A DNA stretch of 64,000 nt from Escherichia coli 042. GTDB taxonomy: Bacteria; Pseudomonadota; Gammaproteobacteria; Enterobacterales; Enterobacteriaceae. Position numbers: made by a program. The stretch is taken from assembly GCF_000027125.1 (NCBI RefSeq), contig NC_017626.1. One strand, written 5' to 3'. Below are positions 30,001 through 45,000 of this stretch, in pieces; positions within the stretch are counted from its first letter, which is position 1, and each line of letters begins with the position of its first letter.

Positions 30001-33000
30001 GCTCGGCGGTGCCGCTGGAGATGAAGCAGGGGTGACTGCCATCAAATCTGCTTTTCATACAATCGGTAACGCTTGTACGGCTCTGCCCCAATGCGTTCCA
30101 GCATGTTATTCATGCCTGTATTGGTTTCGAGGATCCATGACATCTCCAGCGCATCGATCTTCCGGCGGGCAAACGGATCGCGTAAGGCTTCAATCAATAA
30201 CAGCGCAATCACCGGGCCGATGCGGCTGAACTGATACTCGTCCCGCACGCCCATCAGCGGCACTCGCGCAGTTCGCACACCGCTGACTTTCAAACGCCAC
30301 AGCAATTTTGCCCAGCCGAAGGGAAAGAGCGATCCGTTCAGATCGGCAATCGCCTCGTTGATGTTTGGCAAGCCGACAATAAACGCGCAGGGTGCAGAAT
30401 CAATCTCAGCGATGTAGATCATATCGTCCGGCACCAGATATTTAAGTTGATCGCCCATGCTCGCGAATTCATGTTCGGTAAACGGCACAAATCCCCAGTT
30501 GTGCTGCCAGCCAGAATTGAAAATCTCACGCAGGATCTGCATCTCTTCGGCAAACCGCTGGCGATTGATGCAGCGAATGGTCACCTTCTTACGCACCTGA
30601 TCCATCAGTTTTTTTAGCGCCGGAGAGAAAGTGAGACCGGTTCGCTGCATCCACCACGCCAGTAAATCAATGCCTTTGTGATAACCCAATTGTTCAATAT
30701 GCGCGGCATACCACGGTTTACCGTGCGGCATCATCGCACAGGGTGGTGTATCGAAACCTTCAATCAGTAATCCGCTTTCCTGATTGATATTCAGGCTGAA
30801 AGGACCGCTGATCTTACTTGCACCTTGTGACTTCAACCACGCTTCCGCTGCGCCAAACAACGCGGCAAAAACCTGCGGATCATCAATGGCGTCAATCATG
30901 CCGAAATGACCGGTATCTTTGCCGTAACGCTCGCGGTGCAAGGTATCGATTTGCGCGGTAATACGCCCAACTATCTGCCCCGCTTTTTTTGCCACCCACG
31001 CCTGCCAGATGATATGGTCCGTCCCCGGATTTTTCGCAGACAAATGCTCGTTGCGTTCAATGAATAAAGGGGGTATCCAGTTTGGATCGTCGGGATAAAG
31101 TGATGACGGAAAAGCGATAAATGCCTTAAGGTCATTTTTATTAATTACTTTTTCAATTTTAATCATCAGCAGATCGCATTCCATAGTTCTGTGGGTAACA
31201 AATAATTAACGGTGACAAACAGGTTGCAACAGCAACGAACGGCACCTTAATAATCAACCCAATGAATACAAACGACGAATAAATAGTATTTATTAATGAT
31301 TACGATAAGGTCAGAGACTACACAGAAGCGCCACAATGCCTTTTGTCGATTTAAGGCGACCGGACAAGGCTTCTTCTTAATACATTCATAAATTAAATAT
31401 CATTCACAATAAAAACAAAAAACTCAAACTCATTATTTAAATCAATGTTCATTTTCACACTGATGAAAATACTATCTCATTTATCTTTTATGCCTATATA
31501 ATCCACCGCATTATTGTCATTTTATTTTTGATATCCAATTTTTTCGTGGTGTATATGTCTAATAAAATCTTTACGCATTCCCTACCTATGCGCTATGCCG
31601 ATTTTCCAACGCTGGTTGATGCTTTGGACTACGCCGCTCTGAGTAGCGCCGGAATGAATTTTTATGACAGACGTTGCCAACTTGAAGATCAACTGGAATA
31701 TCAGACGTTAAAAGCGCGTGCCGAAGCTGGTGCGAAGCGGTTGTTATCGCTGAACCTGAAAAAAGGCGATCGCGTGGCACTGATTGCCGAAACAAGTAGC
31801 GAGTTCGTAGAGGCTTTTTTTGCCTGCCAGTATGCCGGCTTAGTCGCCGTCCCGTTGGCGATTCCAATGGGCGTTGGTCAGCGGGATTCCTGGAGCGCCA
31901 AATTGCAGGGTTTACTGGCAAGTTGCCAGCCCGCAGCCATTATCACTGGTGATGAGTGGTTGCCACTGGTCAATGCCGCGACGCATGACAACCCCGAATT
32001 ACATGTTTTAAGCCACGCCTGGTTTAAGGCATTACCGGAAGCCGATGTTGCGCTCCAGCGTCCAGTTCCGAACGATATCGCCTACCTCCAGTACACCTCC
32101 GGCAGCACCCGTTTTCCCCGTGGCGTCATTATCACCCATCGCGAAGTGATGGCTAATCTACGTGCTATAAGCCACGACGGCATTAAATTACGCCCTGGCG
32201 ACCGCTGCGTCTCCTGGCTGCCTTTCTACCATGATATGGGACTGGTCGGCTTTCTCCTGACCCCCGTCGCCACGCAGCTTTCAGTAGATTATTTGCGCAC
32301 TCAGGATTTTGCCATGCGTCCTCTGCAATGGCTTAAATTGATCAGTAAAAATCGCGGCACCGTTTCCGTTGCGCCGCCGTTTGGCTATGAATTGTGCCAG
32401 CGCCGCGTGAATGAAAAAGATCTCGCTGAACTGGATCTTTCCTGCTGGCGCGTCGCTGGTATTGGTGCAGAACCCATCTCCGCAGAACAACTCCATCAAT
32501 TCGCTGAATGTTTCCGTCAGGTTAACTTTGACAATAAAACTTTCATGCCGTGCTACGGACTGGCAGAAAATGCGCTGGCTGTCAGCTTCTCTGATGAAGC
32601 CTCCGGGGTTGTGGTTAACGAAGTGGATCGCGACATCCTCGAATATCAGGGTAAAGCCGTCGCGCCGGGTGCAGAGACACGCGCCGTATCGACTTTCGTC
32701 AACTGCGGCAAAGCGTTGCCGGAACATGGTATTGAAATCCGCAATGAAGCAGGTATGCCGGTCGCGGAACGTGTGGTAGGCCATATTTGCATCTCCGGTC
32801 CCAGTCTGATGAGCGGTTACTTTGGCGACCAGGTTTCGCAAGACGAGATTGCCGCGACGGGCTGGTTAGACACCGGCGACCTCGGTTATCTGCTGGACGG
32901 TTATCTGTATGTCACCGGACGCATTAAAGATCTGATTATTATTCGTGGCCGTAATATCTGGCCGCAGGATATTGAATATATAGCGGAACAGGAACCGGAA

Positions 33001-42000: not shown

Positions 42001-45000
42001 GATAAATGTGTTCTGTTGGCATTCTTGCTGCCAGTTCATTTACCAGGCTTGCCGTGAGGGTCGATTTACCTGAACCATCACATCCTACAATGGCAATAAC
42101 ACGCACTGGCGTGGAATTAATTATTGACATATTACGTTGATTCACGAAAAACCCGGCAGTAAATAATGTATTGAATATTACGTGGTCCGTGCTCAGAATA
42201 TCCGTTCAACCTTATTGTGACAATGGTTAATTGTGACATTGACCTGAATTACGCTTTCATAAAAACATATTAACCAAATAAATATTTTTAATGGATATTT
42301 AAATTAAAGGATATATTCATGCAGTCAATAACACCTCCATTAATTGCCGTTATTGGTAGCGATGGTTCAGGCAAGTCAACGGTGTGTGAACATCTTATTA
42401 CCGTTGTCGAAAAATATGGTGCTGCCGAAAGAGTTCATTTAGGAAAACAGGCCGGAAATGTCGGTCGTGCAGTGACAAAATTACCGTTGATGGGAAAATC
42501 CTTACATAAAACAATTGAACGAAATCAGGTGAAAACAGCAAAAAAATTGCCTGGACCAGTTCCGGCGCTGGTAATTACAGCGTTTGTCGCCCGTCGCTTA
42601 CTGCGCTTTCGTCATATGCTTGCCTGTCGTCGTCGCGGGTTAATTGTTCTAACCGACCGTTATCCTCAGGACCAAATTCCTGGCGCTTACGATGGTACGG
42701 TGTTCCCACCTAACGTTGAAGGTGGTCGTTTTGTCTCATGGCTGGCAAGCCAGGAACGTAAAGCGTTTCACTGGATGGCGAGCCATAAGCCTGATCTGGT
42801 CATCAAACTCAATGTTGACCTTGAAGTTGCCTGTGCACGTAAACCCGACCATAAACGGGAATCGCTGGCGAGGAAGATTGCCATAACGCCACAGTTAACC
42901 TTTGGTGGTGCACAACTGGTTGATATCGATGCCAATCAGCCACTGGAACAGGTGTTGGTTGATGCAGAAAAAGCGATTACGGATTTTATGACCGCGCGTG
43001 GTTATCACTAGTCAAAAATGGAAATGCCCGATCGCCAGGACCGGGCATTTTCAGGAAGGTTAAATCAACTGCAATGCTATCCAGTACAGCCCACCAGAAA
43101 GAAAAATTGCCGCCGGTAAAGTAAATACCCACGCCATCAGGATGCTGGTTACCGTTTTACGCTGTAACCCACCGCCGTCCACCACCATCGTCCCTGCAAC
43201 TGCAGACGAGAGGACGTGTGTTGTGGAGACGGGCATCCCAATATAACTGGCAAGACCGATAGACACTGCCGCCGTCATTTGTGCCGCCATGCCTTGCGCA
43301 TACGTCATGCCGCGCTTACCAATCTTCTCACCGATGGTCATCGCTACACGACGCCAGCCAATCATGGTGCCAATGCCGAGCGCCAGTGCTACCGCCATGA
43401 TGATCCACACCGGAGCGTACTCAATGGTGCTTAACATATCGCTGCGAAGTTTTTTCAGCAGGTTCTGGTCTTCTTTACTGACGCCTGGCAGTTTCGCTAG
43501 CTTCGCGGAGGTATCAGAGATGCACAGCATAATGCGGCGCAGCTGGCTGCGCTGACTCACGCTTAACGGCTCGTAACTTTCCATATTGCCTGGCAGCATC
43601 GTTTTAACGCGCGCAATAGCATCAAAGGTATTTGCCGGATGACAGTGAAACTCTGTTACTTGCGTGCCATCAGTCGATGCTGCAGGCAATGGAGGTTCCA
43701 TCGCAATCAACTTCTGCGGCAGTTCAGGATGCTGTTGCAGGTAGTGTTCGAAGTTGGTAACGGCATCGCGGGTACGGGTAATTTCATAGCCGGACGCATT
43801 CATATTGACGACGAAGCCAGCAGGGGCAATCCCCACCAGTACCAGCATTACCAGGCCGATCCCTTTTTGTCCGTCGTTCGCGCCGTGCGAAAACGCCACG
43901 CCCGCAGCGGAAACAATCAGCGCAATACGCGTCCAGAATGGCGGTTTACGTTTGCCTTTTTTCTTTTTGCGATCTTCCGGAATGCGGTGAATACGGTCAC
44001 GCTTTTTCGTCCCGCTCCAGTAGCGTCGCAGCAGGAATATCAGGCCTCCCGCAATGACCCGGCCGACGATAGGGGAAACAATCAGCGAGGAGAAAATTTT
44101 GGTCACTTCACGCAGGTTTAACGCATCCATCACCGATGAGCCGGTTAACAGCGCGTTGGTTAAACCGATGCCGATAATCGCACCAATCAAGGTGTGCGAA
44201 CTGGAGGCCGGTAAACCGAAGAACCACGTTCCCAGGTTCCAGATAATCGCCGCCAGCAGCATGGAAAAGACCATCGCCAGGCCGTGGGTTGACCCCATAT
44301 TCAGCAACAAATCGGTTGGCAACATATGGACAATGGCATAGGCAACGCTAAGTCCGCCCAATAACACGCCAAAAAAGTTAAAAAATGCCGCCATCACCAC
44401 AGCAAGTTGTGGTTGCATGGCACGAGTATAAATAACGGCTGCCACCGCATTCGCCGTGTCATGAAAACCATTGATTGCTTCGTAGAACAACACAAATGCC
44501 AGAGCAAGCAATAACAAAAGCCCTGTGTATATATCAAGGCCAACAAATAAATTTAGCATATATTAGATTACGCCATTTTGAATTTACGAACGGACGCATT
44601 ATCAGTGACTTTAACGGCATGGGCAAAGTGAAATATCATTTTTTAACGATAAAAAGAGTGTTATTTCTTGTGTATCAGACAATAAGCATTCATTCAAAAC
44701 CTTTAGAAATAATCAAAACACAGGTATTCCACTGGTTAATATATTCACATATGAAATGAATAAATATTGGAATATATAAATATTGAATATTTTGATTAAT
44801 CCCCGTACTGATTATTCTTCATAATCAGTACGGGGTTGCTACAACATGTATTACTTTTTCACCACAATTAACGGTTCAATATCACTCTCTTTTTTGATGA
44901 CCAGTGATTCATCACCGCGCAAACACGTCCCACCGTAGTTGCCGCCAACGGTGAAGGTACATACCTGAATGTATTTACCGTCCACTTTCGGCAAACACCA

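Follow-up and report, generated by a model that had tools for sequence, protein, structure and literature searches.

We analysed a stretch of 64,000 nucleotides of Escherichia coli 042 (contig NC_017626.1; hereafter, the window), in which a block of 13 intact open reading frames (ORFs), lying at 30042–43011 between glcC (29211–30035) and pitB (43060–44559), appears to encode the synthesis and export of a ceramide-like sphingolipid. The same gene annotation is found in a RefSeq genome 99.8% identical to the window. Three transcription units can be described for the locus (Table 1), with tight junctions within each unit, the genes either overlapping or lying no more than 45 bp apart, and with yghT transcribed divergently from yghS. 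The G+C content of the block is ordinary for E. coli, except for the AT-rich divergent intergenic regions. A previous sequence-only reading of the window had delimited the block with bounds that stand, and all the genes it listed are indeed present and intact; the 274-aa ORF at 38423–39247, the 13th gene, had been missed, and the coordinates of the fatty acyl-AMP ligase and lptG2 genes are here corrected to 31588–33276 and 35674–36753, respectively.

Table 1. Features of the 13-gene block in window coordinates, with RefSeq product names and the basis of each assignment.
Feature	Coordinates	Strand	RefSeq product name	Basis or remark
yghO, candidate bCerS-type N-acyltransferase	30042..31184	-	protein YghO	intact 380-aa ORF, tandem GNAT model
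divergent intergenic region yghO / aas-cerR-acp-spt	31185..31587	none		AT-rich, G+C 0.42-0.43; presumed promoter region
aasR, fatty acyl-AMP ligase	31588..33276	+	fatty acyl-AMP ligase	NF006624 878 bits vs cut-off 600
cerR/epi, extended-SDR, candidate 3-keto reductase	33273..34187	+	NAD-dependent epimerase/dehydratase family protein	motifs and synteny
acpR, dedicated acyl carrier protein, 82 aa	34219..34467	+	acyl carrier protein	acyl carrier protein models match below cut-offs only
spt, serine palmitoyltransferase	34467..35639	+	spt	NF047599 599 bits vs cut-off 500
hairpin, 16-bp stem	35642..35676	none		terminator-like scan; fills the gap between convergent spt and lptG2
lptG2, LptG paralogue, permease of putative sphingolipid extractor	35674..36753	-	lptG	TIGR04408 308 bits, above cut-off
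lptF2, LptF paralogue	36750..37820	-	lptF	TIGR04407 318 bits, above cut-off
YtfJ-family secreted protein	37851..38414	-	YtfJ family protein	TIGR01626 212 bits vs cut-off 151
274-aa basic all-helical CHAD-like protein ('Ybl138' in UniProt)	38423..39247	-	hypothetical protein	AlphaFold model
yghQ, MOP-superfamily membrane protein, candidate inner-membrane flippase	39247..40596	-	lipopolysaccharide biosynthesis protein (yghQ)	MOP flippase model matched weakly, 32.5 bits
yghR, dTMP-kinase-like P-loop protein, paralogue 1	40642..41400	-	ATP-binding protein (yghR)	Walker A GCDGTGKS, DRF, RKPDH; no ABC signature
yghS, dTMP-kinase-like P-loop protein, paralogue 2	41432..42145	-	'dTMP kinase' yghS	42% identical to YghR
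yghT, dTMP-kinase-like P-loop protein, paralogue 3	42319..43011	+	'dTMP kinase' yghT	34% identical to YghR
unit 1: yghO by itself		-		
unit 2: aas-SDR-acp-spt	31588-35639	+		junctions -4, +31, -1 nt
unit 3: yghS-yghR-yghQ-274aa-ytfJ-like-lptF2-lptG2	42145 down to 35674	-		gaps <=45 nt
interval lost in K-12 MG1655, IS5 in its place	31145..39527	none		blastn of K-12 region vs window

The identity of the four enzymes of the plus-strand unit was assessed by family models, motifs and gene order. To collect relatives of the locus, a genome scan with Spt was performed, which returned 56 loci, all searched by tblastn with the 13 proteins. The product of spt passes NF047599, the NCBI equivalog model for proteobacterial Spt, while staying below the cut-offs of its sister families CqsA (221 vs 428 bits), BioF (333 vs 426 bits) and Kbl (297 vs 460 bits), and of ALAS as well; a DEAH motif at residue 210 and a TFSK motif, with the pyridoxal phosphate-binding lysine, at residue 241 mark the active site. 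The enzyme falls therefore with Spt and not with AONS, KBL or CqsA, as had been proposed from the sequence. The acyl carrier protein (ACP), matching ACP models only below their cut-offs, is not of the housekeeping AcpP type. The SDR-type protein, encoded between aas and acp, has a Rossmann motif (GATGFIG) at residue 9 and a catalytic YAKSK at residue 122, and shows 34% identity (E 3e-32) with the ORF found at the same position in a metagenome-assembled genome (MAG) of Caulobacteraceae, here called L034. The enzymes bCerS and CerR, with which YghO and the SDR protein are compared below, were reportedly defined by Stankeviciute et al. in 2022, in Nat Chem Biol. In Caulobacter, bCerS corresponds to CCNA_01212/CC_1154, while CerR belongs to the NDUFA9-like extended SDRs. 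When compared with E. coli BL21(DE3), Spt (390/390 residues, ECD_02854), AcpR (82/82 residues, ECD_02853) and the SDR protein (304/304 residues) are identical, as are LptF2, the 274-aa protein and YghR, YghS and YghT, and AasR is identical at 556 of the 560 residues compared.

The ceramide-synthesis locus of E. coli is thus already known, being both published and annotated; indeed, the gene name spt is already present in RefSeq. Padilla-Gómez et al. (2022; PMC9386255) reported a rhodobacterial-type Spt in E. coli B, with mention of BL21(DE3) and the enterotoxigenic strain (ETEC) B7A, and the genes ECD_02850–ECD_02854 of BL21(DE3) belong to the same locus as that of the window. In that work AcpR_Ec (ECD_02853) was shown to bear 4'-phosphopantetheine, SPT_Ec (ECD_02854) was assayed in vivo and in vitro and was found to favour acyl-AcpR over acyl-CoA, and co-expression of AasR_Ec (ECD_02851), AcpR_Ec and SPT_Ec led to 3-oxo-sphinganine, AasR being needed. 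Loading of the dedicated ACP by AasR has been shown for a nearly identical protein. ECD_02852 and yghO/ECD_02850 ('aca') were proposed as candidates for the reductase and the N-acyltransferase, respectively, and ceramide-like spots observed by thin-layer chromatography (TLC) in BL21 were considered as possibly deriving from chromosomal ECD_02850 and ECD_02852. Since the five-gene interpretation was stated there, little is added by the central proposal as such, namely that ceramide synthesis is encoded in E. coli. The locus was, however, treated as a feature of E. coli B and for its five biosynthetic genes only; in the searched text of the paper the eight neighbour genes, the 75% prevalence and the bounds of the K-12 deletion, all described below, are not discussed.

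The fifth enzyme, YghO, matched no Pfam and no NCBIfam family by its own sequence. Close homologues are named N-acetyltransferase, and some of them, including homologues at 80% identity, carry PF00583. An AlphaFold (AF2) model, obtained from an alignment of 18 sequences, reached a predicted local confidence (pLDDT) of 85.7 and a predicted TM-score (pTM) of 0.84, and its best PDB matches by Foldseek were tandem GNAT proteins (E 1.7e-14). Orthology with bCerS was judged against L034, taken as a proxy for the C. crescentus protein: YghO shares 41% identity over 98% coverage (E 2e-100) with L034 14360–15499, an ORF that comes directly after LptG2, as bCerS does in Caulobacter. Homologues of YghO adjoin or lie near spt in Enterobacterales, Pseudomonas, Caulobacteraceae, Deltaproteobacteria, WOR-3 and other MAGs, being located immediately 3' of spt in Deltaproteobacteria, WOR-3 and other MAGs. 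The tandem-GNAT fold, together with the identity to the ORF at the bCerS position, bears out the GNAT-like character first suspected from the sequence, although GNAT is recognized here by structure prediction and not by a family match of YghO itself. We infer that YghO is a bCerS-type enzyme that N-acylates a sphingoid substrate. The K-12 allele of yghO (b2981) bears the annotation 'putative DNA-binding transcriptional regulator', and its N-terminus derives from IS5; the same allele was counted among GNAT candidates in a screen for lysine acetyltransferases (PMC6199490). Because of this N-terminus and of the loss of the pathway, studies on the K-12 allele make use of a truncated enzyme deprived of its pathway.

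Gene order outside Enterobacterales provides the link with Caulobacter. In L034 the order is flippase-like gene, aas, SDR, acp and spt, with an LptG-like gene and then the YghO homologue further on, and the identities to the E. coli proteins amount to 41% for YghO, 43% for Aas, 34% for SDR, 53% for Spt and 33% for YghQ. The published Caulobacter map places a potential flippase at CC_1166, the biosynthetic genes at CC_1165–1162, LptG2 at CC_1155 and bCerS at CC_1154, and includes LptC2/F2/G2 together with the potential flippase in the locus (Olea-Ozuna et al. 2024). The E. coli block resembles the C. crescentus locus (ccna_01212-01226 / CC_1152-CC_1168) in the aas-cerR-acp-spt order, in the placement of bCerS by lptG2/lptF2, in the flippase-like gene upstream of aas and in having no lptB copy, the gene order having been checked on the Caulobacteraceae MAG as proxy. 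On the contrary, cpgABC, CC_1152, 1153, 1158 and lptC2 are not present in the E. coli locus, which instead contains genes for three dTMP-kinase-like P-loop proteins, for a CHAD-like and for a YtfJ-family protein; the head group is thus probably not ceramide di-phosphoglycerate.

The full set of 13 genes extends over more than 10 genera of Enterobacterales, having been found in Escherichia (with E. whittamii and cryptic lineages among the carriers), Pseudocitrobacter, Citrobacter, Hafnia and Pluralibacter, as well as in Sodalis, Serratia, Mangrovibacter, Pantoea and Rosenbergiella. The genes occur together in three arrangements, namely the E. coli order, one with the eight-gene block inverted and one with the block split and yghTSR upstream of yghO, and such a linkage, outlasting rearrangement, provides good evidence of a joint function for the whole set. 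In particular, yghT always adjoins yghS divergently in Enterobacterales loci. By tblastn against all loci, YghQ, the 274-aa protein and the YtfJ-like one turned up in loci of Enterobacterales only, if the relative of YghQ in L034 is set aside. Pseudomonas loci retain yghO, the four enzymes, lptF2G2 and the P-loop genes. In Pseudomonas sp. LS-2 (L029 1489–16480) an MsbA-like ATP-binding cassette (ABC) exporter lies directly after spt in place of YghQ, while a YegS/diacylglycerol (DAG)-kinase-like lipid kinase adjoins lptG2 and the P-loop genes are followed by a CptA-like phosphoethanolamine transferase. The kinase-like gene is found in this Pseudomonas variant and not in the E. coli locus. These genes hint at a phosphorylated, possibly phosphoethanolamine-decorated, ceramide in Pseudomonas.

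In Serratia sp. M24T3, where one contig carries all 13 genes of the locus (L021 / L010 comparison), a second acp-spt pair was found on another contig (Spt 79% and ACP 69% identical), with no other locus gene within 10 kb. A further match, the 273-bp, very-low-coverage contig L057 in the assembly of Alkalicoccobacillus porphyridii, a member of Bacillota, reproduces the E. coli spt/lptG2 junction with 100% identity and almost certainly represents contamination by E. coli DNA.

The export half of the locus comprises LptF2, LptG2 and YghQ. LptG2 and LptF2 are 28% and 29% identical to K-12 LptG and LptF, respectively. As in the LptB2FG(C) machine, both pass the LptF/LptG equivalog cut-offs, are of equal length and have retained the LptB-contacting glutamates of the coupling helices (LptF E84 in 'SEIT', LptG E88 in 'SEL'). 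They differ from it in their low identity to the housekeeping pair, in being encoded in a sphingolipid locus with neither LptB nor LptC, and in their presumed substrate, a two-chain ceramide and not lipid A. Having passed the cut-offs, the two paralogues are labelled by RefSeq/PGAP plainly as 'lptG' and 'lptF: LPS export ABC transporter permease', with the result that carrier genomes seem to hold two lptFG pairs and, counting the P-loop genes, three tmk genes. Family scans and motifs revealed no ABC nucleotide-binding domain (NBD) encoded by any of the 13 genes, and we therefore propose that the housekeeping LptB powers LptF2/LptG2, in agreement with Caulobacter, where one LptB is used by the two permease pairs. 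In a preprint of April 2026 by Uchendu, Isom and Klein (10.64898/2026.04.12.717747), Caulobacter LptF2 and LptG2 are reported to bind each other and the housekeeping LptB, lptF2/G2 being deletable only in spt or cpgB mutant backgrounds; the two genes are described there in many alpha- and gammaproteobacterial sphingolipid loci, and Figure 2B depicts the sphingolipid operons of E. coli UTI89. YghQ shows multiple predicted hydrophobic membrane segments and is 33% identical (E 1e-40) to L034 2690–4045, an ORF directly upstream of aas, at the position of the Caulobacter 'potential flippase' CC_1166.

YghR, YghS and YghT are paralogous, with identities of 34–42% and invariant GxDGxGKST, DR(Y/F)PQ and RKPDH motifs. 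Their likeness to thymidylate kinases lies in the Walker A and DR(Y/F) motifs and in the best PDB matches of the family profile, which are thymidylate kinases (E 3e-6). They differ in other respects: RKPDH is specific to the family, the three paralogues are found in a lipid locus, and scores with TIGR00041 (dTMP kinase) are of 24–32 bits for the trio (YghS 24; YghS/YghT 24–26) against a cut-off of 83, so that the RefSeq name 'dTMP kinase' for YghS and YghT is not justified. Two other roles were considered and rejected. The proteins are not CpgB-like ceramide kinases, since CpgB is of the DAG-kinase/LCB5 type with a GGDG motif, whereas the trio has a Walker A motif and thymidylate kinases as nearest relatives; nor are they the missing ABC ATPases of LptF2G2, as they show no LSGG signature and no NBD family match beyond the P-loop. 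The most economical guess is that they act as a kinase on a lipid-linked or head-group substrate.

The YghRST family is a wide one, counting 3007 representative clusters at E≤1e-3, and includes many proteins of about 500 aa with the domain at the C-terminus. The N-terminal domain of these fused relatives, of about 260 aa, is unannotated, and an NCBIfam search with it gave no match and no functional hint. In the metagenomic contig L062 (228–7897), a fused relative is accompanied by genes for another small P-loop protein, a Polysacc_synt flippase, Wzy_C/GT2 and an epimerase; a P-loop kinase-like pair with a MOP flippase may be a module recurring beyond sphingolipid loci.

No Pfam, NCBIfam or PDB sequence match was obtained with the 274-aa protein, nor did the Pfam CHAD profile match it or 13 members of its family, and hhalign against the CHAD domain of E. 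coli YgiF was negative. On the contrary, its AlphaFold model (pLDDT 91.3) is all-helical and is predicted to have a CHAD-like fold, an assignment supported by fold and not by sequence-level proof. The protein is basic (isoelectric point 9.3), with many invariant Arg, Lys and His, and its family is small, counting 489 proteins among 5.8 billion, essentially all from Enterobacterales, one of which is named 'CHAD domain-containing protein' in UniRef. CHAD (conserved histidine alpha-helical) domains bind polyphosphate, with structures such as PDB 6qv5, 6rn5 and 3e0s; differently from them, the 274-aa protein stands alone, with no CYTH partner, and has no Pfam CHAD match. Polyphosphate binding by CHAD domains, together with three kinase-like proteins, would speculatively suggest a phosphate-rich head group. 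Close structural relatives of the model in AFDB50 include 'CHAD domain-containing proteins' of the same length (26–41% identity, TM-scores 0.90–0.96) from Sphingomonas, Zymomonas, Gluconobacter, Acetobacter, Komagataeibacter and Commensalibacter. These six genera are known or predicted carriers of spt. In the loci of Pseudomonas and Caulobacteraceae, no gene of CHAD-like type was detected by hmmsearch or hhalign. The YtfJ-like protein has a hydrophobic N-terminus ending with ...APGVQA and no PDB relative was found for it; its gene stays with the locus in Enterobacterales and is absent from the Pseudomonas and Caulobacteraceae loci. A literature search retrieved no paper tying YghR/S/T, the CHAD-like or the YtfJ-like protein to sphingolipids.

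Prevalence was determined by megablast on 5426 complete E. coli genomes, a collection biased toward clinical isolates. Some part of the 13-kb block was found in 4821 of them and no match in the remaining 605, and the central 8 kb (31300–39247) was present at a coverage of at least 80% in 4066, including NC101. The block is thus near-core and not a rare accessory island, and the label of accessory block given to it in the sequence-only reading has to be abandoned, the more so as the set is found in other Escherichia and in many Enterobacterales. About 560 complete genomes have the flanks only, like K-12, and one genome has a plasmid copy.

K-12 MG1655 aligns to the window through 31144 and resumes at 39528, with IS5 (insH9) in between, in accordance with its annotation (yghO - insH9 - a 355-aa yghQ). 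What had been supposed for K-12, that IS5 lies between yghO and yghQ and that the central genes are missing, is thus confirmed by both alignment and annotation. The loss takes away the first 13 codons of yghO with its promoter, eight whole genes and the last 94 codons of yghQ; K-12 has lost the pathway through an IS5-associated deletion of 8.4 kb.

Taken together, these data support the ceramide- or sphingolipid-like synthesis and export function proposed for the block, as the synthase sorts with Spt and YghO is modelled with a GNAT fold. The match of the five enzymes with the Caulobacter set also holds, all five being placed by scores, synteny and fold, although it is not novel, the E. coli case having been published. 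We consider it probable (about 0.85) that the block is the Escherichia/Enterobacterales form of the 'rhodobacterial' sphingolipid locus, with a core orthologous to Caulobacter ccna_01212-01226. In the pathway that can be proposed, AasR would load a fatty acid onto AcpR and Spt would join acyl-AcpR with L-serine to give 3-oxo-sphinganine, both steps having been shown with the identical or nearly identical BL21 proteins. YghO, as a bCerS-type tandem GNAT, would then attach the N-acyl chain, and the SDR protein (CerR) would reduce the 3-keto group leading to dihydroceramide, the order of these two steps being disputed in the literature. The lipid would be handled by the products of the divergent seven-gene unit and of yghT: on the basis of the Caulobacter data, YghQ may flip it across the inner membrane and LptF2/LptG2, with housekeeping LptB, may extract it toward the outer membrane. 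For the P-loop trio and the basic CHAD-like protein, the assembly or processing of a phosphorylated head group would be the most likely, though speculative, role.

Several points weigh against this interpretation. The activities of YghO and the SDR protein in E. coli are predicted ones, and the N-terminus of the latter shows no signal sequence, with the Rossmann motif beginning already at residue 9, whereas Caulobacter CerR is reportedly periplasmic. The function of LptF2/G2, the use of LptB and the flippase role of YghQ would be extrapolations from Caulobacter to E. coli, and the head-group step is speculative. Moreover, the lipid profiles of BL21 strains expressing single genes resembled that of the empty-vector strain (PMC9386255), so that the chromosomal locus gave no visible product in those conditions, and our literature search retrieved no report of a native sphingolipid from E. 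coli.

The last two points are also those that would favour an intact but effectively silent locus, a conditional or decaying ancestral pathway making no lipid in ordinary growth, with E. coli not being a producer in practice: BL21 carries the full chromosomal locus and still looks like the empty-vector strain on TLC, and K-12, along with about a quarter of the complete genomes, does without the core and with no obvious harm. We regard this as a minority possibility, because the 13 ORFs are intact and 95–100% conserved in the 4066 genomes mentioned above, and the set is kept in other Escherichia and many Enterobacterales despite rearrangement, which argues for selection on function. As it concerns expression and not biochemical capacity, a silent locus would be compatible with a rhodobacterial-type sphingolipid locus in E. 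coli. Rather less probable is, in our view, the most extended form of the proposal, according to which Enterobacterales have a head-group and handling module of their own (P-loop trio, CHAD-like and YtfJ-family proteins), missing from the Caulobacter-type locus analysed and yielding a phosphorylated, possibly oligophosphorylated, ceramide, distinct from the ceramide di-phosphoglycerate of Caulobacter and exported via YghQ and LptB2F2G2, as a conditional anionic outer-membrane sphingolipid in most natural E. coli.

Two other explanations appear very improbable. The product might not be a ceramide at all, for instance an N-acylated amino-ketone, or an alpha-hydroxyketone-type signal from a CqsA/AONS-like synthase, given that alpha-oxoamine synthases are hard to assign from sequence, that bacterial Spts have a relaxed substrate specificity, as indicated in PMC9386255, and that YghO has no family-level annotation; the Spt equivalog model is nonetheless passed at 599 bits with CqsA, BioF and Kbl below their cut-offs, the identical BL21 enzyme makes 3-oxo-sphinganine from serine, and the orthologues of bCerS and CerR lie in conserved synteny. 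It is just as improbable that the lptG/lptF copies, yghQ and the P-loop genes, which make up the right half of the block, are a lipopolysaccharide (LPS) or polysaccharide module merely lying beside the spt operon. The RefSeq names 'LPS export ABC transporter permease', 'lipopolysaccharide biosynthesis protein' and 'dTMP kinase' point in that direction, as do the distant P-loop relatives that, in a metagenomic contig, lie together with genes of the Polysacc_synt, Wzy_C and GT2 types. However, the right-half genes travel with spt in all three Enterobacterales arrangements, lptF2G2 and P-loop genes flank spt in Pseudomonas too, separate housekeeping lptF/lptG genes, 28–29% identical, exist in E. 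coli, and in Caulobacter lptF2/G2 deletions are possible only when spt is lost.

The knowledge of the E. coli envelope rests almost wholly on K-12, where the locus is deleted, whereas three quarters of the complete genomes, including BL21, UTI89-type and NC101, keep the 13 genes intact. Should the lipid be produced in the gut or the urinary tract, the outer-membrane barrier, polymyxin binding and host sphingolipid signalling could be influenced by it, and the duplicated LptFG would be a second client of the Lpt machine, an antibiotic target. Were the extended form of the proposal correct, a conditional anionic sphingolipid of the outer membrane would have been missed by work on K-12.

As to the non-coding features, the hairpin between spt and lptG2 is likely a bidirectional terminator. 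A consensus scan of the presumed promoter region between yghO and aasR gave one weak promoter-like site only, not above chance; promoter scans of both divergent regions of the locus likewise gave nothing above chance, and an Rfam search of 29000–45000 returned zero matches. A role of the unannotated genes in anti-phage defence was also considered and discarded, since PADLOC returned nothing meaningful. Finally, the phosphate transporter gene pitB adjoins yghT in Escherichia, Pseudocitrobacter, Citrobacter and Hafnia, but is not next to the locus in Serratia, Mangrovibacter, Sodalis and Rosenbergiella, so that its vicinity to yghT probably reflects local synteny rather than functional linkage.

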